Positions 2,525 through 42,533 of a stretch of 64,000 nucleotides of DNA are shown here, piece after piece (position 1 is the stretch's first letter; the number at the start of each line of letters is the position of its first letter). The notes beneath the pieces were generated by a model. The model did no database searches. It was not told the origin of the DNA and was given only the letters and a program-made list of their open reading frames with translations. A program made the position numbers and the translations under genes. The DNA comes from Candidatus Kuenenbacteria bacterium (lineage in GTDB: Bacteria > Patescibacteriota > Patescibacteriia > UBA2196 > GWA2-42-15): positions 12,815 to 76,814 of the forward strand of contig JAAZOM010000006.1 of the NCBI GenBank assembly GCA_012797775.1, written 5' to 3'.

Positions 2525-3748
2525 ATGCGCCAATCACAACTTTTCACCAAAACCAAAAAAGAATTTGCCAAAGACGAGGAATCAATCAATGCCAAGCTTC
2601 TAATCAAAGCTGGTTTTATCGATAAATTAATGGCTGGCAGTTACACCTTTTTACCGCTGGGTCTTCGGGCCTTGGTCAAGATTGAAAATATTATCCGCGA
2701 AGAGATGAATGCCGCCGGTTGTCAGGAAATTTTGATGCCCGCCCTCCACCCCAAGGAAAATTGGGTCAAGACCGGTCGCTGGGATGGTATTCATGAGATT
2801 CTCTTCAAATTGCAGGGCGTTCGCGGCAGTGAGTTTACTCTCGGGCCAACCCACGAAGAAATTGTTACCCCCCTGGCCAAACAGTACATTTTTTCCTATA
2901 AGGATCTGCCCTTTGCTGTTTACCAAATTCAAAGTAAATTTAGAAATGAGGCCCGGGCCAAATCCGGACTTCTGCGCGGTCGGGAATTCCGCATGAAAGA
3001 TGTTTATTCTTTTCATGCCAACGAAAAAGATCTGGAAGATTTTTATGAGCGCATGGCCAAGGCTTACGAACGGGTTTGGGCTAGGCTATCTCTCGGCGAT
3101 ATCACTTACAAGACATTTGCTTCTGGCGGCAGTTTTTCCAAGTATTCTCACGAGTATCAGACTGTTTGTGAGTCTGGCGAAGACGAGGTTTATCTTTGTG
3201 AAAAATGTCGTCTGGGCATCAATAAAGAGATTATCGCCGAGCAAGACTCTTGCCCTGAGTGCGGCAACAAAAAGTTGATCAAAAAGAATGGCATTGAGGT
3301 CGGCAATATTTTTCAACTTAAAACCAAGTACTCCGAGCCATTTAAGCTGGTTTATCAAGATGAAAAAGGTGGTAATAATTTGGTGCAAATGGGTTGCTAC
3401 GGCATTGGTCCTTCGCGCTTGATGGGCACTATTGTGGAGGTCTTTCATGACGACAAGGGCATGATCTGGCCAGAGGCTGTAGCGCCCTTCAAATATCATT
3501 TGCTAAATTTGTCAAAAGAGGGTAAGGTAAAGAAACAGGCTGAAGATATTTACGCCAAATTGGCGGCTAGGGGCGAGGAAATTCTCTATGATGACCGCTC
3601 CGAGAGCTCTCCCGGAGAAAAACTCCAAGACGCTGACCTTCTTGGTCTACCCACAAGACTCGTCGTCTCTGACAAGACGGATAATAAAATAGAAGTTAAA
3701 AAAAGAGTCTCTAAAAATGTTGACTTGAAAAATTTTAATAATTTATAA
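2525..3748 (+). CDS. proS: Prolyl-tRNA synthetase of bacterial type that lacks the INS editing domain and carries a small C4 zinc-ribbon insertion.
   Basis: MRQSQLFTKTKKE...AGSYTFLPLGLRALVKIENIIREEM...GRW and GREFRMKDVYSFH (motif 2) align with ProRS. MGCYGIGPSRL is motif 3. The CEKC...CPEC insert is the zinc ribbon. At 407 aa the protein is too short to contain an editing domain. Confidence 0.8.
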   Translation: MRQSQLFTKTKKEFAKDEESINAKLLIKAGFIDKLMAGSYTFLPLGLRALVKIENIIREEMNAAGCQEILMPALHPKENWVKTGRWDGIHEILFKLQGVRGSEFTLGPTHEEIVTPLAKQYIFSYKDLPFAVYQIQSKFRNEARAKSGLLRGREFRMKDVYSFHANEKDLEDFYERMAKAYERVWARLSLGDITYKTFASGGSFSKYSHEYQTVCESGEDEVYLCEKCRLGINKEIIAEQDSCPECGNKKLIKKNGIEVGNIFQLKTKYSEPFKLVYQDEKGGNNLVQMGCYGIGPSRLMGTIVEVFHDDKGMIWPEAVAPFKYHLLNLSKEGKVKKQAEDIYAKLAARGEEILYDDRSESSPGEKLQDADLLGLPTRLVVSDKTDNKIEVKKRVSKNVDLKNFNNL

Positions 3749-3753
3749 TTTTC

Positions 3754-4794
3754 ATGTTGAACAGTGTATTCAAAAATATCAGACCTGATATTGGCATTGA
3801 TCTTGGCACCAGTAATACCCTCGTTTATATCAAAGGCAAGGGTATTGTTGTTAATGAACCATCCGTTGTCGCCATCAATACCAGAACTGATCAGGTTTTG
3901 GCCATTGGCGAAGATGCCAAAAGGATGGTCGGCAAGACACCCAGCCACATTATTACTTCCAAACCTTTGGTGGAAGGGATAATTTCTGATTTTGAAGTGG
4001 CGGAACAAATGCTCAAATATTTTATCAATAAATTTGTCGGCAATAAGCTTGGATTTTTTTCCGGCAAGCCGCGTATTGTTATTGGTATACCGCTCGATGT
4101 TACCGAGGTGGAGAGAAAAGCAGTCGAAGATGCCGCTCTCGGCGCTGGCGCCAAGGAGGTTTTCCTAGTTGAAGAGCCCATGGCCGCCGCTATCGGCGCT
4201 CGCCTGCCCGTCCAGGAGTCCACTGGCAATATGGTAGTGGATATTGGGGGCGGCACGACCCAGATTGCCGTTATTTCACTCTCTGGTATTGTCGCCTGGA
4301 AGTCACTGCGTCTAGCCGGTGATACCTTGAATAAAAATATTATTCAATATATTAGAGAAAATTTTAATCTTTTAATTGGTGACACAACAGCAGAAAAAAT
4401 AAAAATTGCCATTGGATCTGTTTTTGCTTCTGATCGGCCGGTTGAAATGGCTGTTAGCGGCCGTGATCTTATCAACGGTTTGCCCAAAGAGATTGTTATT
4501 TCTGATAGTGAAGTGCGAGAAGCGATCAGCCGTAGCGTTAGGACCATCGTCAGTAGTATCAAATCAACAATAGAATCCACTCCACCCGAGTTGGTAGCTG
4601 ATATTTATAAGCGCGGCATAGTCCTTTCTGGCGGTGGGGCCCTCTTGCGTGGGCTCGATTCTCTTATCGGCCAGGAAACGCGCATCCCCGTTGCAATTAT
4701 TGATGATCCGCTGACTTGTGTTGTGCGTGGGACTGGCCTAGTTTTAGAAGATTTAGAAAACCTCAAGGACGTCTTACTGCCTTCTACAAAATAA
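3754..4794 (+). CDS. mreB: Rod shape-determining actin homologue MreB.
   Basis: IGIDLGTSNTLVYIKGKGIVVNEPSVVAI at the N-terminus, plus DIGGGTT and LSGGGALLRGLD motifs. Confidence 0.92.
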   Translation: MLNSVFKNIRPDIGIDLGTSNTLVYIKGKGIVVNEPSVVAINTRTDQVLAIGEDAKRMVGKTPSHIITSKPLVEGIISDFEVAEQMLKYFINKFVGNKLGFFSGKPRIVIGIPLDVTEVERKAVEDAALGAGAKEVFLVEEPMAAAIGARLPVQESTGNMVVDIGGGTTQIAVISLSGIVAWKSLRLAGDTLNKNIIQYIRENFNLLIGDTTAEKIKIAIGSVFASDRPVEMAVSGRDLINGLPKEIVISDSEVREAISRSVRTIVSSIKSTIESTPPELVADIYKRGIVLSGGGALLRGLDSLIGQETRIPVAIIDDPLTCVVRGTGLVLEDLENLKDVLLPSTK

Positions 4795-15906: not shown

Positions 15907-16090
15907 AGGATTTTACTTAATTTATTTATATTTTAATTCTACCAAATCTAGCCAAAAAAGCCACAAAAAGGTGAATTATGAAGAATGAATTAAGAATTAT
16001 GGTTAAAAACTGAGCAATTTATATCCCATGATTTAGTTTAAAAGCAAAACAATCTGAAGGCATAATTCATAATTCTAAATTCATAATTCA

Positions 16091-20330: not shown

Positions 20331-21272
20331 ATGGAACACGTAAAGATATTGGCCGTCAATCGCCGGTGGGATCTGCCAGTATTGATCACCAGACAACTGG
20401 GCTTGCCCCTTGTCTGGGTAGAGAAAAAAATTTTTGCCGACGGTGAGTGCTGGGTCAGACTCCCGGAAAGCGTACGCGGCAAAAGGGTATTTATCATTGC
20501 AGAAAATACACCGGCTGAGAAACTCATGGTTTTGTTGGTGATGATTGATGCTTGTCGCCGGGCTTCAGCCGCTGAAATCAATGTGGTTGTTCCCTATTTT
20601 GGCTGGGCGCGCCAAGATCGCATGAAGGGTCGTGATCCGGTCACTGTAAAATTGGTCTGCAATCTCATTGTCCAGGCCGGTGCTGATCGCCTGCTTTCGA
20701 TGCACCTACACTTCCCCCAGCTTACCAGCTTCGTGGACATTCCTTGGGATCATCTGTATTCGGCCTATGCTATCATCGACTGGGCGAGAAAGCAAGGTAA
20801 AAAATTTACTGTAGCTGGTCCTGATTATGGCGCTTCGCCCTTGGCAGACTTCGTCGCCAGAAAACTGGATATGCCCTTGGCAATTTTGAGAAAAAAACGG
20901 CCGGCGCACAATCAGGCAAAAACTAGTGGTATTATGGGCAGTGTTAAAAACTCGGACGTTTTGATGGTCGATGATATTTCAGACACTGTTCGGACCATGA
21001 TTGGTGGCTGTGAATATTTGGGAGAGCTGGGAGCCAGAAATATTTATCTCACCGCCACCCATGGTTTGTTATCAGCTGGCGGGGCCAAAAGGATAGAAGA
21101 GTGCTCTCGTGTTAAAAAAGTATTGATTACCAATACGACGCCCATGACGGCCAGAAAAAAATCACCAAAAATTGAGCGTATATCAGTACATGACATTTTT
21201 GCCAAGGCCATCAATGCTATCATCAGGGAGGAATCGGTCAAAGATCTTTTTGAAAAAGAACTTTTCGCCTAA
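20331..21272 (+). CDS. prs: Ribose-phosphate pyrophosphokinase (PRPP synthetase). Copy 1, GC-rich.
   Basis: FADGECWVRLPESVRGKRVFIIAENTPAEKLMVLLVMIDACRRASAAEINVVVPYFGWARQDR matches the Prs N-terminal and PRPP-binding blocks. A strong ribosome-binding site GGGAGGGAG precedes the ATG. Confidence 0.8.
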   Translation: MEHVKILAVNRRWDLPVLITRQLGLPLVWVEKKIFADGECWVRLPESVRGKRVFIIAENTPAEKLMVLLVMIDACRRASAAEINVVVPYFGWARQDRMKGRDPVTVKLVCNLIVQAGADRLLSMHLHFPQLTSFVDIPWDHLYSAYAIIDWARKQGKKFTVAGPDYGASPLADFVARKLDMPLAILRKKRPAHNQAKTSGIMGSVKNSDVLMVDDISDTVRTMIGGCEYLGELGARNIYLTATHGLLSAGGAKRIEECSRVKKVLITNTTPMTARKKSPKIERISVHDIFAKAINAIIREESVKDLFEKELFA

Positions 21273-21317
21273 ACAAAACCCCTGCCGGATTTCCGACAGG
21301 GGTTTCTTTTTTTATTT

Positions 21318-21381
21318 CTACTTTTCTACCACCCTACTTTCCTACCGACCTACATCCCTACTGTCCTACCTCCCTATCTTC
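21318..21381. repeat. Array of eight CTAC(N4) units with an exact 8-bp phase.
   Basis: CTAC (CTAT in the last unit) starts at 21318, 21326, 21334, 21342, 21350, 21358, 21366 and 21374. The array sits in the convergent gap between prs and the AMP phosphorylase gene and overlaps the latter's stop. Confidence 0.7.
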
Positions 21382-22865
21382 ACCACCTGATTTTTTCTAG
21401 CCGCGACCAGCCCTAGCTTCAGCCGGCCTTCATTTTCCGCATACAGAGTGAAAAGTTTTTGCCCTTTTGCTACCTTGTCATTAATTCTCACATGCATATG
21501 GATGCCCGCCAGTTTTTCTCTTGGCGCACCCAAATTTACGCAGATTTCTTCTATCGCCTTATTATTTACCGCCACTACCTTACCATCGCGCTTGGCATGC
21601 ATCTCATAATTTAGAGCCCCGAGCGCTACTGCATCAGCTTTGATTTTTTGATTGCCTCCCTGTGCTTTGATGATCTCCTGCATTTTTTTCCAAGCCGCCA
21701 GACTTTTTAGTTGTTGCTCGGCAATTTTTCTACCTTGGCCTTTTTTGCAAAATCCTTTCAACTCCAAAAGTTTGCCTGACAGATAAACACCTTTTTTCTC
21801 GAGATCGATCGGCCGGAGTTTGTGCTGTTGCAAGACCCGGAGCACATCTCTCGCTTCGAGTGCCGGACCCACACCCGCCCCCACCGGCTCTTTGGCCTCG
21901 AGCATTTCTACTTCTACTTTTATTTTAAATCTCTTCCCCACCGCCACAAATTTCTTGGCTATTTCTTTGGCGGTTTTCAGGCTGTGCACCTTGGCTGTTG
22001 GCCCATAGGGCAGGTCAATTACGAGGTAATCTACTCCCATCGCCACTTTTTTGGCGAGAATAGAAATAATCATTTTATCATATGGCTCCAAGGACAATGG
22101 CTTGGACACTTTGATAATAATGTCATCAGCTGGTGCCATACTGACCGCTCCGCCCCAGACCATACAGGCTTTGGTTTTCTCAATGACTTTTTTTATTTTT
22201 TCTACGCTCAGATCGACCGGCGCCAAGACTTCCATCGTATCCGCTGTGCCCGATGGCGAGGTGATCGCCCGTGAAGAAGTTTTTGGGATATAGAGCCCAA
22301 GCGAGGCGATAATCGGGATGACTATCATTGTGGTCCGATTGCCCGGTATGCCCCCAATAGAGTGTTTGTCCACCACCCTCTCTTTTAAATTCAATTTTTC
22401 TCCGCATTCAGCCATGGCCTTGGTCACATAGTAAAGCTCATCCAGGCTATATGGTTTTACAAAACTGGAAGCTACATAGTAGGTAGTTTCGATTTGTCCT
22501 AGTTTGCCCGTAGAAATATCCGAGATGATGGAATATATTTCTTCATAATTTAGTCTCTTGCCCAACATTTTTTTATTGATCGCCTTGATTGACTCTGGCC
22601 GGGAGTAGAGCATTATTTCCACGATATCTTCACTGTCAATTTGGTTTTTCTTCCAAATCTCCTCAAATAATCCCACTTCCCCATAATCAACCTTGCTGTC
22701 AGAAACATCCACGGTGGCAATCATGGTTTTGTTTTTGCTCCATTTTAGGTTTACCCGGTCGCCCGGCCGGATACCCTGATTTTCCGCTTCTTTTTCTTGG
22801 AGCACTACCGTTGGCTCACCACCGGATGAAAAGTCTATTTTTTTGCATTTGTAGAATAGGCGCAT
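21366..22865 (-). CDS. AMP phosphorylase (thymidine phosphorylase family with the AMPpase-type N-terminal extension).
   Basis: DKHSIGGIPGNRTTMIVIPI...TSSRAITSPSGTADTMEVLA are core thymidine-phosphorylase-family blocks. The N-terminus MRLFYKCKKIDFSSGGEPTVVLQEKEAE matches archaeal-type AMP phosphorylase. Start set at the internal Met at 22865. Confidence 0.75.
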   Translation of the reverse strand: MRLFYKCKKIDFSSGGEPTVVLQEKEAENQGIRPGDRVNLKWSKNKTMIATVDVSDSKVDYGEVGLFEEIWKKNQIDSEDIVEIMLYSRPESIKAINKKMLGKRLNYEEIYSIISDISTGKLGQIETTYYVASSFVKPYSLDELYYVTKAMAECGEKLNLKERVVDKHSIGGIPGNRTTMIVIPIIASLGLYIPKTSSRAITSPSGTADTMEVLAPVDLSVEKIKKVIEKTKACMVWGGAVSMAPADDIIIKVSKPLSLEPYDKMIISILAKKVAMGVDYLVIDLPYGPTAKVHSLKTAKEIAKKFVAVGKRFKIKVEVEMLEAKEPVGAGVGPALEARDVLRVLQQHKLRPIDLEKKGVYLSGKLLELKGFCKKGQGRKIAEQQLKSLAAWKKMQEIIKAQGGNQKIKADAVALGALNYEMHAKRDGKVVAVNNKAIEEICVNLGAPREKLAGIHMHVRINDKVAKGQKLFTLYAENEGRLKLGLVAARKNQVVKIGR

Positions 22866-23009
22866 AAAATTAGTATCAAGATATAAAGTATTTATTGTGT
22901 GTAATTTTATTTCTGTCTTTATTTTACCGCACCCCGTCTGAAAAATCAAAAAAGCTAAAAGGTTATATCTATAAGATTTTTTAATTGTAGCATGGCCCCT
23001 TGACGCGCC

Positions 23010-23038
23010 GGATAAAATATTTTATTCTTATTTCAAAG
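23010..23038 (+). promoter_or_regulatory. Possible sigma70 promoter TTGACG-17-TATTCT.
   Basis: 17-nt spacing. Lies about 100 nt upstream of the 23139 gene, which has the ribosome-binding site AAGGAGAAGG. Confidence 0.3.
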
Positions 23039-23138
23039 TTTTTTAAAAAGAAGAGACTAAACATAAAAAGGAGCAGGAAAATTTGTTGTTTTCAATTCAC
23101 GAGAAATTAAACCAGCCAAATGACAAGGAGAAGGTCTC

Positions 23139-23711
23139 ATGCAGACAACTTTAAATCTCCCGCTAATTCCCAGTGAAGTTTTTTTCACCAGGGGTTGGGG
23201 CAATGGCAGAAGCAAAGACATTTCACGGCGGCTGGCTCTTCGCGCTGCAGGCATCGGGGATTATAACATCGTGAATGTAGATGATGCTATTTTGCCCCCT
23301 AAATGTAAAGTTATCAGCCGATTTGCTGGCTTGTCAAAGTTAAGGCGCGGCGAATTTATTTTTTGTGTCTTATCTTGTTCTTCTGACAGCGAGCCCAACC
23401 GCCTAGTCTCGAGCGCTGTTGGTTGGGCCTGGACACCAGACACCGAGCAAGACGGCTTTGTCTCCAGGTGTGCTTTGAATGGCCAAACCGGCATAAAAAC
23501 CGGCGACGAGGCAGAAGACCTTGCCGCCACTATGCTGGCCAGTAATTTGGGGATAGAATTTGACCCCGAAAAAGCCTGGAGAGAAAGGGAGGAAACTTAT
23601 CAAGCGGCTGGTCAGGATATTCGCACCTCGCGCCTTTTCCAATCTCGGAGGTGCGGGCCAGATAAAAATATTTGGACTACCGTAGTGACAGCTGCGGTTT
23701 TCCTCATGTAA
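23139..23711 (+). CDS. Pyruvoyl-dependent arginine decarboxylase (PdaD) family protein.
   Basis: FFTRGWGNG...LALRAAGIGDYNIVNVDDAILPP parallels the archaeal PdaD N-terminal region (F.T.G.G...AL..AGIGN.N...SIMPP). The gene is GC-rich. Confidence 0.5.
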   Translation: MQTTLNLPLIPSEVFFTRGWGNGRSKDISRRLALRAAGIGDYNIVNVDDAILPPKCKVISRFAGLSKLRRGEFIFCVLSCSSDSEPNRLVSSAVGWAWTPDTEQDGFVSRCALNGQTGIKTGDEAEDLAATMLASNLGIEFDPEKAWREREETYQAAGQDIRTSRLFQSRRCGPDKNIWTTVVTAAVFLM

Positions 23712-23730
23712 TAAGTAATTATCCCAAACG

Positions 23731-23760
23731 AAAAACTCCACCCCTAGGGGCGGAGTTTTA
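23731..23760. terminator. Bidirectional terminator between convergent genes.
   Basis: aaaaactccacccc-ta-ggggcggagtttta. Confidence 0.6.
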
Positions 23761-23761
23761 T

Positions 23762-24691
23762 TTATATATTTTTTACAAACAGCTCGGCCACCGTCAGCAC
23801 TTCAAATTTTTTATCCTTCTTAAAATCCTTGGTCGAGACAATGGAATTTGTGGTAAATATTTTTTTAATATTTTTCTCGCGCCGCAGATTGGCTACCACT
23901 GGTCCAGTGGCTACCAAGTGTGTCAAAACTACATAAATATCTTTTGCTCCTTTGGCCTTCAGGGTTTTGGCCGCCTGGATCAGCGTCCCTCCGGTCTGGC
24001 TCAAGTCATCCACCATCACCACTGTTTTATTTTTCACCTCTCCTCGAAATTTGGTCACCTTCGCCTCATCCACTCGCGGCCGGATTTTTTCTATGGCGGC
24101 CAGATTTTTTATCCCTAATTCATCCGCAAAATTTTTACTGCGCTCGTCAGCGCCCAGATCCGGCGCTAAAACCACCACATCTTTCAGTTTTAATTTTTTG
24201 ATCTTTTCTATAAAAAGTCCCCGCGCTTTTAATTCGGTTATTTTCACTCGGAAATATTTGGCCACTTGGCGGCTGTGCAGATCTAGGGCCACGATTTCAT
24301 CTACTCCTGCATCTTCAATAATTTTTGCCATGAGCTTTGCACTCATCGCATCCCCAGAATATTTTATCCTGTCCTGCTTGCCATAACCAAAGTAGGGGAT
24401 AAGAGCCACTATTTTTTTCGCCCCGTTTTCCTTTAGCGTGTTGATGAGAATTATCAATTCCAACATATTTTCCGCTGGTGAAAAAGTCGAGCCCAAGACA
24501 TAAACTTTTTTGCCGCGGACATTTTCGTTTATATGTACCAAAATTTCCCCGTCTTTATAGTGGGATATCAGGCACCTGCCTTTTTTGATTTTTTTTGTCC
24601 GCCGGTTGGCGGATTGTAATATCTCTCCAACCAATTCTTCATTGCTATGGGTGGAGAAAAGAAAGTTAGACATTCTATTTGAGTTTAGCAC
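23762..24691 (-). CDS. prs: Ribose-phosphate pyrophosphokinase (PRPP synthetase). Copy 2, AT-rich.
   Basis: KDGEILVHINENVRGKKVYVLGSTFSPAENMLELIILINTLKENGAKKIVALIPYFGYGKQDR and VVLAPDLGA blocks. Confidence 0.8.
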   Translation of the reverse strand: MLNSNRMSNFLFSTHSNEELVGEILQSANRRTKKIKKGRCLISHYKDGEILVHINENVRGKKVYVLGSTFSPAENMLELIILINTLKENGAKKIVALIPYFGYGKQDRIKYSGDAMSAKLMAKIIEDAGVDEIVALDLHSRQVAKYFRVKITELKARGLFIEKIKKLKLKDVVVLAPDLGADERSKNFADELGIKNLAAIEKIRPRVDEAKVTKFRGEVKNKTVVMVDDLSQTGGTLIQAAKTLKAKGAKDIYVVLTHLVATGPVVANLRREKNIKKIFTTNSIVSTKDFKKDKKFEVLTVAELFVKNI

Positions 24692-26432
24692 TCCCTGGGA
24701 TCAGCGGATCATAGCCATGCTCTACTTCATCGCCATCTTTATAGCCATCACCATCAGTATCAGCTTTTGATGGATCAGTCTCCCAAATAAATATTTCTTC
24801 TTCATCAGTGATACCATCATTGTCTGTATCTAGATCGGTGCCCATTTCCAAGCCCATTCCATAGTCTTCCCCATTGTTCATCGAGCTTATGCCGTTGGGC
24901 GTGGCCACATTTTCTCCGGCCTTCAGATTGCCGCTGTCACCCAGCAACTGGAAGACCAAAGTATAATCATTTGGTTTTATGCTGGTATACAAATAGCCAC
25001 CATCTATTATTTTGTCTCCGCCCGGTACTTCACTCATATAGACTGTTGAGCCGGCACACTCTTCTATACTAGCCCTAAATCCCTTGGAACACAAAACTTT
25101 CATATTGCCGACACCCGTAGCCGCCGGTATCTCGTTTTTTGGATAGCCATTATTATCGACGAAATAAAGCTCTAGCGCCGTTTGTATCTGCTTTATTTCG
25201 CTCACCGTTTTGGCGTCACTATTTTTTGTCTGCGCTTTGTCCAACGCCCCAAACATACCTCCGCCAAAAGCCTCACTTAATAATTTTTCTAATTCCACTG
25301 GGTCTTTTGGTGACTCTATCTCCATTATCTGGTTAAAATTATCAAATGTTATGGTCATCGCCCCTCCCAAAGTCTGGTTGCCGTCTTTGTCTTTGCCGAT
25401 ATTATCAAAAGGGATTTCTATTTTTCTTATAAAATATTCTTTTTTATCTATCCAGATATCTAGGCTGAAATTTTTAACAAAGCGGTCAAAATTCTGCCAG
25501 TCTTCTTCTTTCATCTCGGCCATGTTTTTTTCTATCTCGGCTTTATTTTTAGAAACAGTTTTTATCTTTTCTATCATATCCAAAATACCCTGTTTATCCA
25601 GACCCAACTGATAGTGGTATGTTTTATTTTCTCCCAATGTTTCCACGCCGTAGTCATTTTTTAATATTATTATCTTGTCCGCATCTTGCTCTAGGATTTC
25701 CCCAATTTTCTTTGTATCCTCATCCTCTTGGCCGGCAAATTTATCCAAGACCGTCGTATTAATACTATATTTCACCCATTTATCTTTTATACTGCTAGTG
25801 TCAATAAACATAGCCAGCATAATTGGCAGTTGGTTTATTTTGAAATAAAGATTTTTCCCCAGAGTTACTACCTCGCCGGCTATATTATTAGTTGTACCGC
25901 CAATATCCAAACCAATATCTATTTTAAATTTTGAACGCAGATTATTTTCGTCGGTATTATCAGTGTATCCTTCTATTTCTGCGTACATCTTTTGTTTTTC
26001 CGTTCCAAGCAGCCCCCCAATTAAATTTAGCGTTGGGGTCGAAGTGGCTTGCTCCGCAGCTTGTTTTTCCTGAAATTCCAATTTCAAATCAAGCTTAAAA
26101 CTGGAAGCCTTTATTTGATTGGTGGCTTGGACGGATTTTTTTAGTACCTTGTCGGGTGTATTGGCGATATATTTGCTATAGCCCCAATATCCACCAAGTG
26201 CTACTCCAGCAAAAATTAAAACTCCAGCTACAATAGCCAGTATTTTTTTTATACCACCACTTGTTTGTGGCATCTCTGGATTCAAAAATTGAGAAGCATC
26301 CACGCTGGGTGGGTTATTCGGTACTGCGACGTTAGGGGTTGTCTCGTAAAGTGGGGTATGACAACTTTGGCAAACGTGGCTTTCCGGGCTATTTTCCAGC
26401 CCGCATTTTTGACAGCGCATATTGTTTTGCAT
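24675..26432 (-). CDS. Hypothetical membrane-anchored protein with an N-terminal zinc ribbon and a C-terminal Asp-rich calcium-binding-like repeat.
   Basis: CQKCGLEN...CQSCHT zinc ribbon, then a TM helix and a large extracytoplasmic region. C-terminal DTDNDGITDEEE...DTDGDGYKDGDE repeats resemble TSP3 or calcium-binding motifs. Confidence 0.5.
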   Translation of the reverse strand: MQNNMRCQKCGLENSPESHVCQSCHTPLYETTPNVAVPNNPPSVDASQFLNPEMPQTSGGIKKILAIVAGVLIFAGVALGGYWGYSKYIANTPDKVLKKSVQATNQIKASSFKLDLKLEFQEKQAAEQATSTPTLNLIGGLLGTEKQKMYAEIEGYTDNTDENNLRSKFKIDIGLDIGGTTNNIAGEVVTLGKNLYFKINQLPIMLAMFIDTSSIKDKWVKYSINTTVLDKFAGQEDEDTKKIGEILEQDADKIIILKNDYGVETLGENKTYHYQLGLDKQGILDMIEKIKTVSKNKAEIEKNMAEMKEEDWQNFDRFVKNFSLDIWIDKKEYFIRKIEIPFDNIGKDKDGNQTLGGAMTITFDNFNQIMEIESPKDPVELEKLLSEAFGGGMFGALDKAQTKNSDAKTVSEIKQIQTALELYFVDNNGYPKNEIPAATGVGNMKVLCSKGFRASIEECAGSTVYMSEVPGGDKIIDGGYLYTSIKPNDYTLVFQLLGDSGNLKAGENVATPNGISSMNNGEDYGMGLEMGTDLDTDNDGITDEEEIFIWETDPSKADTDGDGYKDGDEVEHGYDPLIPGSAKLK

Positions 26433-26440
26433 AATTTATT

Positions 26441-27709
26441 TTACTTTTTTAATTTCCAATATTCCAAGGCCCGCTTTAATTCCAGACGAGTTTCAGCATA
26501 AATTTTGGCTGGGATTTTTTTGACCACTGCTTCTACTGATTGTCGACAAGCTCTAGCTCCGGCGATTGAGCCATCCGGGTGGCCATGTAGTCCGCCCCCG
26601 AAATTAATCACCAGATCAGCCCCGAGTATTTTGACCAATTTTTCCACCAGTCCCGGATGCAATCCGCCCGAAGCAATCGGCAAAACCGGCTTGATCTTTT
26701 CCCAATTGGTTATTTCCTTATTCACTCCAAACCAATCTTCCTCCATTTCCAGATTTATTTCCGTCACTTCCTCGGCCGTGCCTTCCATTTTCCCGACCAC
26801 TGTACCCGTGTGCAGCTGATCAATGCCTGTCAATCTGGCCAGTTTGGCCAAAAGCAGCATGGTCATGCCGTGGCGTGAATTTTTGGTAAACATCGAATGC
26901 CCAGCTCGGTGGCCATGCAAAATCAAGCCCAGATTTTGTTCTCTCAAAAATTGGATATTATCCAACCCAGCCACCACGAGATCAATCATTGCTACCTTGC
27001 CACCGTATTTTTTGACTAGTTTAGCCCGTTTGAGCATCACATCAGCTGGTCCAGTCACATTAAAAACATAAACTTTTTTCTCGCCTGTCTCTTGCTCCAC
27101 TTGTTTTTTGAGTTTCATTACTTCTTTCACCCGTTCTTCAAATTTATTAAAAACCATATCTGTCAAATTCTCATCATCCTTGACTAGATCCACACCGTTT
27201 TTCCAGATTTGATAAGCGAGTCTAGCCTGCTCTTTGGCCGAGAGTCCCACCTTGGGTTTGATGATTGAGCCGATAATCGGCCGCTTGTAAATTTTCAGAT
27301 ATCTTCTCACTCCCTCGATACCAAAGGCCGGTCCCCTGAATGAATCCAGATATTTTTTGGGGAACTGAATATCCAAGAGGCGCAGATTGGCTATCACTTT
27401 CATACTAAAAACATTGCCAGCCAAAGCAGAGAGCAATTGCGTGATATTGCCGAGCTCAAACAATGCCAGTGGGTAGGCAATGTGCACTGTTTTTTTCTTG
27501 TTATCCAGTTTGAAAATCTTTGGCCCCAGCTTTTTTAGGGTTGCCTCTTTGAGCGTGCCGAGTTTTGTCCAGGTGCCGATGGATGATTCAGCGGCGATAT
27601 GCGCGGCCGCCTCGGCCAAGGGTAGTTTGCTTTCTAGATAATAGCTTACCACCAATTCTTCTTTGTAATTTGGCCGGTAGCCCAGCCGGAGATAAGGAGA
27701 TTTACTCAT
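26441..27709 (-). CDS. rbcL: RuBisCO large subunit, form II/III-like.
   Basis: GxxVKPKVGLSAKE catalytic-lysine block, KDDENL block and HxHRAGH block (LHGHRAGH). Start set at MSKSPYLRLGY (27709). The upstream part of the track ORF merely translates the GTAGG array. Confidence 0.85.
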   Translation of the reverse strand: MSKSPYLRLGYRPNYKEELVVSYYLESKLPLAEAAAHIAAESSIGTWTKLGTLKEATLKKLGPKIFKLDNKKKTVHIAYPLALFELGNITQLLSALAGNVFSMKVIANLRLLDIQFPKKYLDSFRGPAFGIEGVRRYLKIYKRPIIGSIIKPKVGLSAKEQARLAYQIWKNGVDLVKDDENLTDMVFNKFEERVKEVMKLKKQVEQETGEKKVYVFNVTGPADVMLKRAKLVKKYGGKVAMIDLVVAGLDNIQFLREQNLGLILHGHRAGHSMFTKNSRHGMTMLLLAKLARLTGIDQLHTGTVVGKMEGTAEEVTEINLEMEEDWFGVNKEITNWEKIKPVLPIASGGLHPGLVEKLVKILGADLVINFGGGLHGHPDGSIAGARACRQSVEAVVKKIPAKIYAETRLELKRALEYWKLKK

Positions 27710-27715
27710 AGGGTT

Positions 27716-27808
27716 GTAGGTTAGTAGGTATGTAGGGAGGTAGGTTAGTAGGATGTAGGTCAATAGTTAGCTTTTTCCTACGACGCTACTTTCCTACCAA
27801 CCTACTAC
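27716..27808. repeat. Inverted pair of 8-bp-phased arrays: GTAGG six times, then CCTAC four times.
   Basis: GTAGG starts at 27716, 27724, 27732, 27740, 27748 and 27755. CTAC starts at 27778, 27786, 27794 and 27802. The pair lies between rbcL and the four-helix-bundle gene. Confidence 0.65.
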
Positions 27809-28173
27809 TCTCTGTTATTAATCATTTTATTTAATATTTTCATTACTTCATTTAATATATTATCTGCTTTTATAAAGCTACTTTCTTTTGCTAGTTTTAA
27901 TCTTTTCGCTATTTCAATTTGTGTTTCCAGTTCCGCGCCAGAGCCGAGGGCGATAATTAAGAAATGCCGAAAATCTGTGACACTACCACGCCTTCTTCCC
28001 TCGGCGATATTGGATGGTATAGAAACAACGGTTTTCTTTGTGTGTGTTGTTAAACCATATAATTCTGATGGTGGGTATTCTCGAGTCAACTCATAAACTG
28101 CAATAACAAGTTCCATTGCTTTCTGCCAGACAATTAGATCTCTATAATCTCCCCATTTATAATTCCCTTCCAT
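27805..28173 (-). CDS. Four-helix-bundle protein of the 23S rRNA intervening-sequence protein family.
   Basis: About 120 aa, with ...ELTREYPPSELYGLTTHTKKTVVSIPSNIAEG...FRHFLIIALGSGAELETQIEIAKRL, typical of that family. Flanked on both sides by CCTAC arrays. Confidence 0.65.
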   Translation of the reverse strand: MEGNYKWGDYRDLIVWQKAMELVIAVYELTREYPPSELYGLTTHTKKTVVSIPSNIAEGRRRGSVTDFRHFLIIALGSGAELETQIEIAKRLKLAKESSFIKADNILNEVMKILNKMINNRE

Positions 28174-28193
28174 AGTATTTAATAATTAATTTC

Positions 28194-28229
28194 CTACTTC
28201 CCTACCCACCTACACCCCTACTTCCCTAG
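28194..28229. repeat. Five CTAC(N4) units with an exact 8-bp phase.
   Basis: CTAC or CTAG starts at 28194, 28202, 28210, 28218 and 28226. Confidence 0.65.
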
Positions 28230-29159
28230 TATCCACGGATAATATTTCTTCACATATTTATCTACCTCATTCGGTTTGATCACCCCAAATTCGGTGATAT
28301 AGCCGGTGATCAGCTGCGCTGGTATTTTGTCAAAAGCAAAATTGATAATCTTTAGTTGTGCTGGGCTGTTCTTCCAAATTTCGGTTTTGGCGCGCAATTC
28401 TATCCCCATTTTTTTATTGGTTTTTTTCATGAGTGTGCCAGCCAGATAGACCGGGATCTTGGAAGTGTAGGCCGCGAGCGCAATGCCAAAACTACCCACT
28501 TTATTCAAAGCGGAATTGTCCGCCAAGATCACGTCAAAACCGATTATCACTTTGTCTATTTTTACTTTGTCGCCGGAAAAATTGGAAATCAGAAATTCGG
28601 CGGCTGAATCCACCACCATGGTATTATCAATTTTTAGTCTAGCCAGATCTTCAGAGGTTTTTCGTCCCTGCATGAGTGGCCGAGTTTCATCATTATAAAC
28701 GTGTATTTTCTTTTTCTGTTCTTTGGCCGCGCCCAAAATATTGATGACTGTTTGCGCATGGCAGTGCGTGAAAATATTTTCTTTGTTTTTTATCGTTCTA
28801 CTACCATAGAGAGAAATCCGCTGGCCATTTTTATGGAGTAATTCTGAAAAATCGGTTGCCTGTTTTTTGGCCAGTTTTTTCAATTCTACCACTTCACTAG
28901 CCCTGCTTTTGATCCCATGTTTTTCTGCCAGACGCAGATGCAAGTATTTAAAAGCATTAATCGTTAGTGGTTCATCTGGTCGGGCTTTGGCCAAGAGCTC
29001 GCCAGCGCGCTTGGCTTCATTCAGGAAAGTCACCGGATTTCTCATCTTCAGGATTGATAAATAGGCGACCCATGCTTCAATGCTCGCCCGGCAGATATTG
29101 CTGGCGCCCTGTATTTTTATAGAACGGATATCTTTTATTGTTTGGTTTAGACTAGCCAT
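28218..29159 (-). CDS. Ribose-1,5-bisphosphate isomerase (eIF-2B alpha/beta/delta-like, e2b2).
   Basis: IQGASNICRASIEAW, THCHAQTV and VIIGFDVILADNSALNKVGSFGIALAAYTSKIPVYLAG match the eIF2B-like MtnA/R15P isomerase fold. Sits next to RuBisCO. Confidence 0.75.
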   Translation of the reverse strand: MASLNQTIKDIRSIKIQGASNICRASIEAWVAYLSILKMRNPVTFLNEAKRAGELLAKARPDEPLTINAFKYLHLRLAEKHGIKSRASEVVELKKLAKKQATDFSELLHKNGQRISLYGSRTIKNKENIFTHCHAQTVINILGAAKEQKKKIHVYNDETRPLMQGRKTSEDLARLKIDNTMVVDSAAEFLISNFSGDKVKIDKVIIGFDVILADNSALNKVGSFGIALAAYTSKIPVYLAGTLMKKTNKKMGIELRAKTEIWKNSPAQLKIINFAFDKIPAQLITGYITEFGVIKPNEVDKYVKKYYPWILGK

Positions 29160-30045: not shown

Positions 30046-30060
30046 TCTATCTTTAGTAGC

Positions 30061-30081
30061 GAGTAACGAGTGACGAGTAAT
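30061..30081. repeat. Three GAGTRAY heptamers with a 7-bp phase.
   Basis: gagtaac, gagtgac and gagtaat. This is the inverted partner of the array at 30490-30515. Confidence 0.55.
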
Positions 30082-30096
30082 GTGCTAAAGGGCGAC

Positions 30097-30468
30097 CTAA
30101 GTGTTTATTGATCTGATTAATCCATTTATTATTTGTCTAGTCTGATTACCCAGTTCGCCCAGTCTTTTGCATGTTTCCAAATTAATATACTCCAAGTCTT
30201 TTGATAATATCAAAAAATTTTGTACTTCGGCCACCGAGCCGCGCGCTTGATAATAAAACTTAGTCTTATCTTTAAAATGATATCTAGCAAAACCCTCAGC
30301 GATATTAGCACCAACAGAACTAGCTGCCCTTCTTAATTGGTTGGTGATTCCATATGTTTCGTCAGTCGGGAAAAGTTTTGTTATTTTATAAATTTCCAAT
30401 GCCAAAATGTGGGAGTATTTCCAGGCCTCTAAATCATAAAAATTATTTATTATATTTTTCTTTGACAT
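30097..30468 (-). CDS. Four-helix-bundle protein of the 23S rRNA intervening-sequence protein family. Paralog 2.
   Basis: About 123 aa, with ...ITNQLRRAASSVGANIAEGFARYHFKDKTKFYYQARGSVAEVQN. Flanked by inverted heptamer arrays. Confidence 0.65.
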   Translation of the reverse strand: MSKKNIINNFYDLEAWKYSHILALEIYKITKLFPTDETYGITNQLRRAASSVGANIAEGFARYHFKDKTKFYYQARGSVAEVQNFLILSKDLEYINLETCKRLGELGNQTRQIINGLIRSINT

Positions 30469-30489
30469 ATTAATTATTCATTTCCCTTA

Positions 30490-30515
30490 TTACCTATTAC
30501 ACATTACTCATTACT
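30490..30515. repeat. Four ATTACNN heptamers with a 7-bp phase (reverse complement GTAAT).
   Basis: TTAC starts at 30490, 30497, 30504 and 30511. Confidence 0.55.
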
Positions 30516-31902
30516 AAAGTACCACTCGTTCTCCCTTTTCTGGCATCACAATCTGCCCAATCTGATTTTTATCTAGCTTCTCCGCCAAGACACTCATCGC
30601 TCCTGCTTCACCATGGACTAGAAATAATTTTTTCAGTTTGCCAACGCCCCCAATAAATTTAACCAGATCATACTGATCCGCGTGGGCGGACAGAGAATTT
30701 AAAACCACTATTTTCGCCTTGACTGCCAGATTTTCATTCAAGATATTTACCTTTTCTGCTCCCTCGAGTAGTTTTCTACCCAAGGTATTCTCGGCCATGA
30801 AACCAACTATCACTACGGTATTTCTCGGGTCACTGATGCTATTTTTCAGATGGTGCCGGATGCGTCCGAACTCACACATACCCGAAGCTGAGATAATTAT
30901 GCATGGCTGTTTTGTATTATTCAATTTTTTTGATTCTTCTGGCGTTTCTACAAAACGCAGTGTGGTAAAAATAAAGGGATCTTTGCCTTGCTCCAAAAAA
31001 GTTTTCTGTGTTTCTTCGTCCAGTAGATCAGGATAATCAGAAAAAGCCTCACTCACTCTTTCTGTTAGTGGACTGTCCAAATAGACAAATAAAGGCGGTA
31101 TGGCTTTTTGATTGATCAATTCATGGATAATATACAAGAGTTCCTGCGCGCGCTCTAAGGCAAAAGAGGGGATGATCACCTTGCCGCCTCGGGCATAGGT
31201 CTCATTGATTGCTTTGGCCAGGTCGAGATATGAAGTGGACAGGCTGTCATGGACCCGGTCGCCATAAGTACTTTCCGAGATCAGATAATCAACCGCCCGG
31301 ATTTGCTCCGGGTCTTTGAGAATCGGTAAAAATTTGCGACCCAAATCTCCGGTGAATCCGAGGCGCACTATTTGTCCATTTTCCGTTAATTCCAAAGTCA
31401 ATAAAGCTGAGCCAAGTACATGCCCAGCATCGCGGAAATAAGCTTTGACCCCCGGCAATGGTTCAAATTCTTCATGATAATTCACGCCCACAAATTGCTT
31501 CATGGCTGGAGCCACATCATCAGGTGTATAGATTGGTTCTAGCGGTGTTGTCTCTGGTAATTGTTTGCGATTCAGATATTCCACATCATAAACCTGCACT
31601 CGGGCACTATCCTCGAGCATCAATTCCGTGATCTGCTCAGTAGCTTTGGTGCAATAAATTTTGCCCTTGAAACCCTGCTTGACCAGATTGGGAATATTGC
31701 CCGAGTGGTCAATATGGGCATGGCTCAAGATCATGGCATCAATACTCTTGGGGTCAAAAGGAAATTCTCTGTTTATACTTTCCATATCCCGCCTTTGTCC
31801 TTGCCAAAAGCCGCACTCCAAAAGGAGTTTTTTATTATTTATAGTGATCACATATTGTGAGCCAGTGACAGTTTTGCAGGCCCCGAAAAATTCTATTTTC
31901 AT
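30514..31902 (-). CDS. Metallo-beta-lactamase / beta-CASP family ribonuclease (RNase J / CPSF-like).
   Basis: HAHIDHSG motif within an MBL fold, plus a beta-CASP region and a C-terminal HGE block. Confidence 0.7.
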   Translation of the reverse strand: MKIEFFGACKTVTGSQYVITINNKKLLLECGFWQGQRRDMESINREFPFDPKSIDAMILSHAHIDHSGNIPNLVKQGFKGKIYCTKATEQITELMLEDSARVQVYDVEYLNRKQLPETTPLEPIYTPDDVAPAMKQFVGVNYHEEFEPLPGVKAYFRDAGHVLGSALLTLELTENGQIVRLGFTGDLGRKFLPILKDPEQIRAVDYLISESTYGDRVHDSLSTSYLDLAKAINETYARGGKVIIPSFALERAQELLYIIHELINQKAIPPLFVYLDSPLTERVSEAFSDYPDLLDEETQKTFLEQGKDPFIFTTLRFVETPEESKKLNNTKQPCIIISASGMCEFGRIRHHLKNSISDPRNTVVIVGFMAENTLGRKLLEGAEKVNILNENLAVKAKIVVLNSLSAHADQYDLVKFIGGVGKLKKLFLVHGEAGAMSVLAEKLDKNQIGQIVMPEKGERVVL

Positions 31903-31905
31903 AAA

Positions 31906-31945
31906 TAAGCGAGTTAAGCAGTAAGTGAGGTAAGCAAGATAAGCA
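31906..31945. repeat. TAAGYRAG-type array with an 8-9 bp phase.
   Basis: TAAG starts at 31906, 31915, 31922, 31931 and 31940, immediately upstream of the beta-CASP gene start. A similar array lies at 18512-18545, upstream of the 18478-18506 promoter. Confidence 0.5.
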
Positions 31946-32109
31946 ACTTAAAAGAAACTTTTTGCCCATCACCTCTTTGTAATTATAATTTTATCCCATA
32001 TCACCGCCCTTTGACAAATTTTCAAAAATAGTTTATTTTAAAAAGCACTATCTCAGACACAAAAGAACGGTAAACAAAAAAGAAAAAACGGAACAGAAAG
32101 GAGCAGAAA

Positions 32110-34686: not shown

Positions 34687-34762
34687 TGGTACGCTGTACA
34701 GGATTCGAACCTGTGACCTTCTCCTTAAAAGGGAGCTGCTCTACCAACTGAGCTAACAGCGC
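34687..34762 (-). tRNA. tRNA-Lys (anticodon TTT).
   Basis: Manual fold: GCGCTGT/ACAGCGT acceptor stem, GCTC-AGTTGGTAGAGC D arm, GCTCC-CTTTTAA-GGAGA anticodon arm, ACAGG-TTCGAAT-CCTGT T arm, encoded CCA. Confidence 0.85.
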
Positions 34763-41600: not shown

Positions 41601-41671
41601 TCGGGGCGCGGGGAATTGAACCCCGGCTACAAGACCCCCAGCCTTGCGTACTACCGTTATACGACGCCCCG
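41601..41671 (-). tRNA. tRNA-Pro (anticodon GGG), with no encoded CCA.
   Basis: Manual fold: CGGGGCG/CGCCCCG acceptor stem, CAAGG-CTGGGGG-TCTTG anticodon arm, CGGGG-TTCAATT-CCCCG T arm. Total 71 nt. Confidence 0.7.
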
Positions 41672-41955: not shown

Positions 41956-42086
41956 CAATGAACAAAAGCACAAAATCCCAAATCCAAAATCCAAAATAAA
42001 TCACAATTCTCAATAAGCAATACCCAAGTCAATCTATGTTTTGGAATTTGTGATTTGAAATTTATTTTGAGCTTGGAACTTGGAAT

Positions 42087-42533
42087 TTAATTATCAATCA
42101 ACCTTTGTTTCCGCCGTTCAAATTCCTTTTTCTTTATACTTTCCCGCTTGTCAAATTTCTTTTTGCCCCGCCCCACTCCGATTTCTAGTTTGATCAGCCC
42201 GCCCTTCAAATAAACCTTCAAAGGCACAATCGTGATGCCCGGCTCGCGTGATTTGCCAAAAAGATATTTCAACTGTTTTTTATGCAAGAGCAATGACCGG
42301 TTTTGATATGGATCATAGTCTTTTTGGTATATTGCCGCTGGCTTGTAAGGAGCGACATGCGCCTTTATCAGAAAAGCACTACTCGTACCATCGAGACCAA
42401 CGTATGATCCCTTAAGATTAATTTGTCCTTTTTTTATAGATTTTGCCTCTGGTCCAGACAACGCCAAGCCAGCCTCAAGCGTCTCGAGGATCTCATAATC
42501 AAAATATGCTTTTTTATTATCAGCAATAGACAT
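42087..42533 (-). CDS. smpB: SsrA-binding protein SmpB.
   Basis: NKKAYFDYEILETLEAGLALSGPEAKSIKKGQINL, and later ...LLLHKKQLKYLFGKS, followed by a basic C-terminal tail. Confidence 0.88.
   Translation of the reverse strand: MSIADNKKAYFDYEILETLEAGLALSGPEAKSIKKGQINLKGSYVGLDGTSSAFLIKAHVAPYKPAAIYQKDYDPYQNRSLLLHKKQLKYLFGKSREPGITIVPLKVYLKGGLIKLEIGVGRGKKKFDKRESIKKKEFERRKQRLIDN

Follow-up and report, generated by a model that had tools for sequence, protein, structure and literature searches.

Why should a five-letter motif recur every 8 bp on either side of one small gene in a bacterial operon? The question is raised by a 64-kb stretch of a Candidatus Kuenenbacteria genome (Patescibacteria), hereafter the window, in which the gene for a four-helix-bundle protein of the 23S_rRNA_IVP family stands between an e2b2 gene and the gene for a type III RuBisCO and is bracketed by arrays of CCTAC and its complement GTAGG. 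We conclude that these arrays are very probably the complementary arms of a stem-loop cassette that is typical of this gene family and is inserted, co-directionally, in an operon spacer. As to how the cassette works, we lean towards a reading by analogy with the intervening sequences (IVSs) of rRNA genes, in which an IVS-type stem-loop sits in an mRNA spacer and its stem would work as RNA, as a substrate of RNase III.

Between 29159 and 21366 every gene lies on the (−) strand. The transcript reads e2b2, five GUAGG units, the four-helix-bundle open reading frame (ORF), four GUAGG units, an 18-nt loop, seven CCUAC units, RuBisCO and the genes that follow it, AMP phosphorylase, eight GUAGG units and a terminator-like hairpin. 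In this order the features are:

28218–29159, (−): e2b2 (IF-2B/e2b2, of the ribose-1,5-bisphosphate (R15P) isomerase type); a TAG of the 5′ arm is its stop codon.
28190–28232, (−): 5′ arm, five GUAGG-type 8-nt units in the transcript (CCTAC on the + strand); holds the e2b2 UAG stop at 28218–28220.
27805–28173, (−): four-helix-bundle gene no. 1, 122 aa, 23S_rRNA_IVP family (PF05635, E 2.6e-33, 114.8 bits, cut-off 33.8; TIGR02436, E 1.4e-30, 105.7 bits, cut-off 24; PDB 2GSC, E 7.5e-21).
27776–27812, (−): local arm, a second GUAGG-type array of four units (CTAC on the + strand); overlaps the UAG stop of four-helix-bundle gene no. 1.
27706–27762, (−): 3′ arm, CCUAC array of seven units (GTAGG on the + strand); the A of the RuBisCO AUG (27709) falls within its last unit.
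26441–27709, (−): type III RuBisCO (TIGR03326, 514 bits); its start codon adjoins the 3′ arm.
21366–22949, (−): AMP phosphorylase.
21316–21384, (−): solo GUAGG array of eight units at the 3′ end of AMP phosphorylase; supplies the UAG at 21366–21368 and is followed by a terminator-like hairpin at about 21265–21303.
20331–21272, (+): prs.

Profile searches confirmed the genes that the initial annotation had called, namely the four-helix-bundle gene, RuBisCO, the R15P isomerase, AMP phosphorylase and prs. The four arrays that it had described were likewise all found at the positions given. In forward-strand letters, CTAC occurs seven times at an exact 8-bp spacing at 21318–21369, at the AMP phosphorylase end, with an eighth unit, CCTAT, extending to 21381; (G)TAGG occurs seven times at 27709–27759; and CTAC (four times, 27778–27805) and CCTA (five times, 28193–28228) follow an 8-bp period. 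The strict 8-bp phase claimed for the arrays is exact in those of CTAC and CCTA but only almost exact in the GTAGG array, whose spacings are 8, 8, 8, 8, 8 and 7. The motif CCTACNNNCCTAC has 12 matches on the two strands of the window, all of them within the four arrays; 100 dinucleotide-preserving shuffles give 0.05 on average and 1 at most. Phased chains of at least four 4-mers number 13 in the window and 0.16 in shuffles. An assembly artefact was considered and rejected, as independent ENA, JGI and Logan assemblies of related organisms (L001–L004; loci from other assemblies carry the prefix L) show GTAGG/CCTAC arrays at the orthologous gene with different copy numbers. The arrays are real, far beyond chance and no artefact.

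Folding the (−) transcript of 27700–28240 predicts two helices at minimum free energy (MFE; z −4.6). The first joins the 5′ array to the distal CCUAC units, around the ORF; the second joins the local GUAGG array to the proximal CCUAC units. The e2b2 UAG, at the foot of the long stem, is predicted to pair with the CUA immediately 5′ of the RuBisCO AUG. As isolated duplexes, the 5′ arm and the CCUAC array reach −51.6 kcal/mol (z −5.8 vs shuffles) and the local arm and the CCUAC array −36.5 kcal/mol (z −4.2); the local-arm hairpin folds at −35.2 kcal/mol (z −4.0). The strongest potential partner of the CCUAC array is the solo GUAGG array at the AMP phosphorylase end (−64.8 kcal/mol, z −6.2), which folds on itself at just −1.5 kcal/mol and so has no structure of its own; the CCUAC array lies 6.3 kb upstream of it on the same strand. 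A long stem formed around the ORF by complementary termini, as in an IVS, is predicted by the folds of the window, by those of homologous loci and by the statistics of 76 loci given below. The suggestion that the arrays reflect an RNA-level structure fits these predictions, the arms being complementary and predicted to pair.

The arrangement of three arrays recurs outside the window. At L050, a third array, of the same unit type and in opposite orientation, is found on the far side of the neighbouring gene (3426–3456 with 3943–3990), as 21318–21381 does relative to 27709–27759 in the window. This topology also brackets ordinary genes, namely part of an rRNA dimethylase-like ORF at L050 and the genes from RuBisCO to AMP phosphorylase in the window.

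Scans for other signals returned little. A promoter and terminator scan found no match in the arms or spacers, and its one promoter-like match, 9 of 12 positions inside the ORF (28089–28062), was nothing convincing. An Rfam search of 15000–43000 found no rRNA, only two tRNAs and sub-threshold chance matches; among the latter, a microRNA-hairpin match to the hairpin at 27721–27809 was rejected at 26 bits against a cut-off of 59. The tRNA genes (RF00005) are at 34690–34762 (−, 71.7 bits) and 41601–41671 (−, 56.1 bits), the second just downstream of an ORF-less hairpin at 41973–42088.

Relatives of the window carry the same design. Loci L001–L003, whose four-helix-bundle protein is 86% identical to that of the window, and L004 (81%) keep the order e2b2, four-helix-bundle gene, RuBisCO together with GTAGG/CCTAC arrays whose copy numbers differ from those in the window. 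This variation fits the earlier guess of replication slippage. At L001 and L004 the e2b2 stop is again drawn from a TAG of the array; at L004 the local arm is degenerate, and the 5′ arm and the CCTAC array are longer. In a further eight loci (L005–L012, 74%) the gene lies between those for a major intrinsic protein (MIP) channel and a superoxide dismutase (SOD), within a near-perfect inverted repeat of ∼28 bp made of TAGG-type units. The long-range stem appears in the folds of L001, L004 and L005, with z from −4.7 to −5.7. Between gene no. 1 and its L001 or L004 orthologues dN/dS is 0.05 at dS 1.5–1.9, so the protein is under strong purifying selection; over the same distance the GTAGG core has outlasted the saturation of synonymous sites.

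The four-helix-bundle gene is, as had been proposed, an interruption of a contiguous gene set. A metagenome scan with the RuBisCO protein as query yielded 16 loci, and at L095–L097, L099 and L101–L105 e2b2, RuBisCO and AMP phosphorylase are adjacent and the gene is absent. L100 likewise has an e2b2–RuBisCO junction without it, on a contig that stops inside RuBisCO. The presence of the cassette does not follow RuBisCO similarity: the RuBisCO N-terminus is 83% identical to that of the window at L001, which has the cassette, and 85% at L100, which lacks it. Since RuBisCO and AMP phosphorylase are adjacent at L095–L097, L099 and L101–L106, the salvage set is interrupted a second time in the window genome; the (−) ORFs found there, at 22950–26440, include one for a protein of 585 aa that has a zinc ribbon and bacterial TSP3 repeats (24675–26432) and a 309-aa ORF (23762–24691).

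Spacers that lack the gene are not empty of repeats. We read the units in three of these loci:

e2b2–RuBisCO spacer of L095, L096 and L100: CAAAATG / CATTTTG.
RuBisCO–AMP phosphorylase spacer of L095 and L096: CCTGCC(G) / GGTAGGCAGG.
beta-CASP–DUF1294 spacer of L095: TTTCCAA / TTGGAAA.

The spacers that we folded (e2b2–RuBisCO of L100 and L095, RuBisCO–AMP phosphorylase of L095) are predicted to form hairpins with z from −2.3 to −6.1. The RuBisCO–AMP phosphorylase spacer is a near-perfect palindrome of (CCTGCCTGCCG)n / (GGTAGGCAGG)n at L095:6480–6570 and L096:2115–2200, with a predicted fold of −63.5 kcal/mol (z −6.0). Should the gene family and the heptamer repeats belong together, hairpins in nearly every spacer of the RuBisCO/AMP-salvage genes would suggest that intercistronic processing or insulation is routine in gene expression of the candidate phyla radiation (CPR). 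Because the empty sites of relatives hold different repeat hairpins, the boundaries of the cassette cannot be defined.

These comparisons also reassign the array at 21318–21381, which the initial annotation had grouped with those around the gene. No four-helix-bundle gene adjoins it, and L094–L096 keep a short GTAGG array that supplies the TAG stop of AMP phosphorylase (L094:3800–3835, L095:8065–8100, L096:3700–3735; three units vs eight in the window) with neither a CCTAC array nor a four-helix-bundle gene. Its position being thus kept, this array is a conserved feature of the AMP phosphorylase end and no relic of a cassette. The proposal that the arrays are insertion scars of a small mobile cassette holds in part: they belong to the four-helix-bundle gene as an inserted cassette, with empty sites in relatives, but they are not scars; what they form is a single stem of two arms, with a local arm in competition.

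The window contains a second four-helix-bundle cassette and several other arrays:

30048–30522, (−): second cassette, with a GUAAU-type 7-nt array at 30478–30522, gene no. 2 (123 aa) at 30097–30468 and the complement of the array at 30048–30088; gene no. 2 matches PF05635 (E 1.7e-33, 115.4 bits), TIGR02436 (112.2 bits) and PDB 2GSC (E 1.4e-15).
15972–16001 / 16061–16090: ORF-less hairpin of inverted heptamer arrays, TGAATTA/CATAATT type.
41973–42013 / 42048–42088: ORF-less hairpin, AAATCC/TTGGAA type, adjoining the stop codon of the ORF at 42087–42533.
31905–31946: solo TAAGC-type array, period 9, 7, 9, 9, immediately upstream of the beta-CASP start (31902, −).

Gene no. 2 lies between a beta-CASP nuclease gene and a DUF1294 gene. 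Its arms are predicted to pair around the ORF (duplex −26.8 kcal/mol, z −5.1), and its protein is 26% identical to that of gene no. 1. With another unit and the same design, it is the first sign that the arrays go with the gene family and not with the locus. At L095 this cassette is absent from between beta-CASP and DUF1294, and an ORF-less hairpin stands there instead. Both ORF-less hairpins of the window lie between co-directional (−) genes and are the top two inverted repeats of the whole window. The arms of cassette no. 2 were rejected as partners of the array at 31905–31946 (z −0.5 and +0.9), which has no complementary partner nearby.

How general is the design? The family is very common, with at least 7,989 significant relatives among 8,000 candidates. 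A scan with the family alignment, at one genome per species, gave 80 loci, of which 76 entered the flank statistics. They come from Patescibacteria, Bacteroidota, Acidobacteriota, Clostridia, Gamma- and Deltaproteobacteria, Planctomycetota, Verrucomicrobiota, Elusimicrobiota and others, and include cultured isolates (among them Elizabethkingia, Capnocytophaga, Flavobacterium, Thiohalocapsa and Collinsella). At most loci a short tandem array lies directly upstream of the ATG and its reverse complement directly downstream of the stop. The unit is specific to the locus while the arms are still complementary, as in GTGGTTA/TAACCAC, GTCAGTA/TACTGAC and GTGACAA/TTGTCAC. The two flanks of a locus form duplexes of −45.9 kcal/mol on average, compared with −30.1 for flank pairs taken across loci (Wilcoxon p 6e-12); with 80-nt flanks, z falls below −2 in 46 of 76 loci and below −3 in 34.

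The arrays at these loci have a period of 7 in 70 cases out of 86, of 8 in 11, of 9 in three and of 6 in two, and the period is equal on both sides in 25 of 28 loci. The 8-bp phase that had seemed special is therefore a minority variant of a family period of 7, and the argument built on the 10.5-bp helical repeat is irrelevant to the arrays. The heptameric long simple sequence repeats (SSRs), or short tandemly repeated repetitive (STRR) sequences, are a class with a 7-nt unit, of which the CCTAC/GTAGG arrays are an 8-nt variant; cassette no. 2 and the ORF-less hairpins of the window have the 7-nt period.

Over 850 kb of loci, the density of strict phased arrays within 150 nt of the gene is 34 times that found elsewhere. 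Thirty-eight of 53 strict near-gene arrays have an inverted partner, which in all but five cases (two nearer, three farther) is 347–513 nt away, which matches the ORF length. More distant arrays have a partner 16–135 nt off or are solo. Among other distant array pairs, the one at L037 is a four-helix-bundle cassette with a distant arm, and the remainder bracket ordinary genes. The proposed link between arrays and gene is thus strong but non-exclusive, since this lineage also has many arrays where the gene is missing, as ORF-less hairpins in intergenic spacers. ORFs on the same strand lie on both sides of 63 of 77 cassettes, with median gaps of ∼48 and ∼45 nt. Where the outermost base pair falls relative to the stop and start codons was computed with RNAduplex; the result was saturated at the segment ends and shows only that the arms fill the spacers. 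We rejected the idea that downstream genes lack a Shine-Dalgarno sequence and depend on the stem, as similar motifs are found in 14% of them vs 16% of other ORFs and 17% of four-helix-bundle genes. The stem-flanked design appears to be characteristic of the gene family in phylum after phylum, and may be new.

Within the arms, one trinucleotide stands out. In the 70 nt upstream of the gene TAG is the most enriched of all (209 observed vs 112 expected, z 9.8), as is CTA downstream (z 11.6). Successive TAGs are 7 nt apart in 81 cases and 8 nt apart in 16, and TAG occurs in all three frames in 31 of 75 loci, compared with 4.3 in shuffles. TAG is the stop codon of the upstream gene in 35 of 68 cases, vs 20 of 77 for the four-helix-bundle genes themselves. 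Judging from the unit and its period (7 or 8, not a multiple of 3), the arrays would place stops in every frame and end the upstream ORF; with one TAG per unit, any incoming frame would therefore be closed within three units. MacGregor likewise made the point of stops in three frames for TAACTGA arrays (PMC4679880).

A further example is found in Xanthomonadales. The only PDB entry matched by either window protein in a PDB sequence search is XCC0516 of Xanthomonas campestris (2GSC), whose orthologues (L109–L118) lie between accB and accC in six lineages of five genera (Xanthomonas, X. sacchari, Stenotrophomonas, Lysobacter, Dokdonella, Dyella). Directly after the accB stop comes an upstream arm of the units GGGAATC, GGGA(A/G)TG, GAGAATC and GGGAATC. 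In most genera the ATG of the four-helix-bundle gene is inside this array, so that two repeat units are translated (MENRES...). After its stop follows a downstream arm of CCCATTC, CCCATTC, CCGATTC and CCTATTCCC, whose end coincides exactly with the accC ATG in four lineages of the six and is ∼10 nt from it in Lysobacter and X. sacchari. The arms are reverse complements of each other, and an enclosing stem is predicted. Flanked by complementary GGGAATC arrays, the family prototype is therefore itself such a cassette. It has stayed at one site across an order and uses the heptamer that is dominant in Xanthomonas genomes.

Taken together, these data would fit the following sequence of events. In the model derived from the folds, the 5′ array would take the distal CCUAC units, enclosing the ORF, and the local GUAGG array the proximal ones; at its base the long stem would bring the upstream stop codon next to the downstream start codon, so that the inserted gene is looped out. 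By analogy with the IVS of Coxiella, for which alone excision by RNase III has been shown (PMC4990558), RNase III might cut the double-stranded stem, releasing the four-helix-bundle mRNA and separating the e2b2 and RuBisCO messages. On the same analogy, the cassette would have no promoter of its own and would depend on transcription of the operon. Slippage, by lengthening and shortening them, may be why the arms consist of short tandem units, the two arms being kept complementary.

Several observations weigh against an IVS-type stem that works as RNA. Foremost among them, mismatches in the arms show no sense-strand G-U bias (103 are compatible with pairing in the sense RNA vs 148 in the antisense RNA), and duplex energies in sense and antisense are equal (36 vs 38 loci). 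These figures gave no support to RNA-specific covariation, or to selection on the sense strand; the lack of bias fits renewal at the DNA level, by slippage and quasi-palindrome correction, and not selection on the sense RNA alone. The stems in this organism are predicted structures. The conservative 80-nt test finds significant arms in ∼60% of loci only, and in the window three GUAGG arrays would compete for one CCUAC array. The RNase III signature motif has no match in the 64-kb window, which tells nothing about the genome as a whole. The IVS RNA excised in Coxiella is unstable and its protein went undetected (PMC4990558), so cutting by RNase III need not serve expression of the ORF. Finally, TAA and TGA are not enriched in the flanks, so that stop codons are not the only way to read the TAG core, which may reflect stop function, common descent or protein recognition.

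The absent bias also bears on the first rival, which we consider unlikely, although it has several facts on its side. Here the arms act as DNA, as terminal inverted repeats or the cruciform or hairpin ends of a foldback-type mobile cassette that is moved by a recombinase in trans or by replication template switching, with the gene as cargo or accessory. An arm whose complementarity is renewed on DNA is expected to lack a sense-strand G-U bias. Similarly diverged lineages differ in whether the same spacer holds the gene, as the RuBisCO N-termini of L001 (83%, with) and L100 (85%, without) illustrate; cassettes occur in unrelated contexts (e2b2–RuBisCO, MIP–SOD, accB–accC, cas operons and rRNA; PMC3936711, PMC11270868); and ORF-less forms exist, just as MITEs (miniature inverted-repeat transposable elements) exist beside autonomous elements. 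However, no transposase or recombinase is associated with the cassettes. Judged as a MITE or insertion sequence, the element has inverted arms, but no target-site duplication is evident as a direct repeat at its ends, and the two copies in the window are only 26% identical as proteins, so there has been no recent copying. Arm sequence varies from cassette to cassette even in one genome (CCTAC vs GTAAT in the window), which makes a single end-recognizing enzyme unlikely. The cassette has, moreover, stayed at accB–accC across a whole order and at e2b2–RuBisCO through a dS of at least 1.5, and the same-strand ORFs that flank 63 of 77 cassettes fit read-through expression better than random insertion.

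A second rival, to which we give a small chance, is that the phased units are binding sites for an oligomer of the encoded four-helix-bundle protein, as an operator or an RNA platform, serving autoregulation or the spread of arrays. XCC0516 is a toroidal homopentamer, with which the four to eight units per array are comparable, and the protein Avd of diversity-generating retroelements (DGRs) is a nucleic-acid-binding relative. The TAG core and the 7- or 8-nt phase are conserved beyond the needs of pairing, and the GTAGG core persists between orthologues with saturated synonymous sites. Xanthomonadales arms keep GGGAATC across genera, and Xanthomonas genomes have ∼185 other GGGAATC sites (PMC4692102), which resembles the relation of repetitive extragenic palindromic (REP) sequences to REP-associated tyrosine transposases (RAYTs). 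Binding of the protein to the arrays is nonetheless putative, suggested by sequence. The units vary widely between cassettes whose proteins are 40–60% identical; ORF-less hairpins with TAG-less units (CAAAATG, CCTGCCG, CATAATT) occur in the same genomes; and a correlation between protein and unit is explained by co-inheritance of the protein with its flanks.

It is very unlikely that the arrays are a neutral by-product, heptamer-class SSRs that arise in any spacer by polymerase slippage and are inverted by quasi-palindrome correction, with a gene that tolerates them or hitch-hikes. Heptameric SSRs are over-represented in many bacteria, and slippage has been put forward to explain this (cited in PMC4692102 and PMC4679880); orthologues differ in copy number; and solo arrays and ORF-less hairpins occur away from the gene. 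Neutrality does not account for an array density 34-fold higher at one gene family, for a partner spacing tightly tied to ORF length, for arm sequence and register conserved across an order beside the essential accBC genes, or for the conserved position of the array at the AMP phosphorylase stop codon. Almost certainly wrong is the idea that G-quadruplexes on the G-rich strand, which has GG every 8 nt, and i-motifs on the C-rich one regulate transcription or translation, as proposed for Xanthomonas GGGAATC: GGGAATC oligonucleotides do form quadruplexes in vitro (Rehm et al., PMC4692102) and GUAGG arrays carry regularly spaced GG or GGG runs, but GG runs with 6-nt loops would give weak two-tetrad structures only, across the 76 loci the units are mostly not G-rich (TTAGC, GTCAGTA, CATAATT, CAAAATG), and the universal feature is arm complementarity, not G content.

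The preferred reading, an IVS-type cassette in an mRNA spacer, touches two puzzles, the unexplained function of 23S_rRNA_IVP proteins and the equally unexplained excess of heptamer repeats in bacteria. If they belong together, then IVSs, 'orphan' four-helix-bundle genes in operons (accB–accC, cas, RuBisCO) and inverted heptamer arrays would be faces of one element. Annotators could then recognize the cassettes and drop labels such as 'ribosomal protein S23' or CRISPR-associated, and the Xanthomonas locus of accB, four-helix-bundle gene and accC would be a tractable test system. A bolder step, which we regard as doubtful, is to take four-helix-bundle genes and heptamer-class arrays as one bacteria-wide system in which the protein is a trans-acting partner that binds, processes or propagates the arrays, as RAYTs relate to REPs. 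Were it true, it would explain the excess of 7-nt repeats in bacteria, the cyanobacterial STRR, Xanthomonas GGGAATC and similar repeats and the rRNA IVSs, and the ORF-less hairpins would be its non-autonomous form. The evidence, a 34-fold enrichment and a Xanthomonas prototype flanked by the dominant heptamer of its own genome, is one of association, not causation.

The cassettes can be set beside several known systems. With Avd, the DGR accessory protein, the encoded proteins share a homologous four-helix-bundle fold and a Pfam family (PMC10053308). Neither a reverse transcriptase domain among the neighbours (e2b2, RuBisCO, beta-CASP, DUF1294 and an unassigned 163-aa ORF) nor an adjoining pair of template and variable repeats was found, and neither gene of the window counts as a DGR accessory. 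CRISPR surveys list 23S_rRNA_IVP as cas-locus or CRISPR-associated, for example between cmr3 and cmr2 (PMC3936711, PMC10910872); these genes may be simple insertions in operon spacers and not functional associations.

REP sequences, bacterial interspersed mosaic elements (BIMEs) and RAYTs offer a closer likeness, in that hairpin-forming intergenic repeats lie in operons and the protein gene is typically flanked by two inverted copies. However, REPs are single palindromes of ∼35 bp, uniform in a genome and recognized by a tyrosine (HUH-type) transposase, whereas the arms in the window are tandem 7–8-nt units that differ between sites, and the gene encodes a 120-aa four-helix bundle of PF05635 that is not known to have catalytic activity; the cassettes do not belong to the REP/RAYT class.

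Heptameric SSRs (STRR, GGGAATC, TAACTGA) resemble the arms in being intergenic tandem 7-nt arrays of variable copy number and a position conserved between relatives. Xanthomonas has ∼185 GGGAATC arrays, 70–75 of them in convergent inverted pairs (Rehm 2015, PMC4692102). In Beggiatoaceae and some cyanobacteria, TAACTGA arrays lie just upstream of start codons, overlap upstream stops and carry stops in three frames (MacGregor 2015, PMC4679880). Unlike these genomes, each with one dominant unit, the window has array pairs that each use their own. A full-text search of both papers found no mention of a four-helix-bundle gene. In the searchable open-access literature, which is not proof of absence, we found no paper that links the 23S_rRNA_IVP family to flanking tandem arrays or heptamer repeats, the Coxiella IVS note apart.

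The cassettes have the architecture of the IVSs of 23S rRNA. RNase III removes these IVSs, which are stem-loop insertions, and those of Leptospira, Coxiella and Brucella carry an ORF of the 23S_rRNA_IVP family; in CPR bacteria this ORF is also found in insertions of both 16S and 23S rRNA (PMC11270868). The Coxiella burnetii IVS has a terminal inverted-repeat stem of 28 bp and three to four tandem GACAGAT heptamers upstream of the S23p ORF (Warrier et al., PMC4990558); the number of heptamers varies by strain, and RNase III cuts at the first of them (PMC4990558). The shared features are a protein of the same family in the loop, an ORF in sense to the host transcript and a terminal inverted-repeat stem of at least 25–30 bp. 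The host differs, being in the window an mRNA spacer between two protein genes and not an rRNA helix, and neither cassette is an rRNA insertion. Unlike the Coxiella IVS, moreover, the window has an 8-nt unit instead of one of 7 nt, a third arm that competes for pairing, a fourth array far off, and a protein with a dN/dS of 0.05, whereas the Coxiella ORF is reported to be decaying. What is new here is an IVS-type four-helix-bundle cassette in an mRNA spacer, built of 8-nt units and with competing arms.

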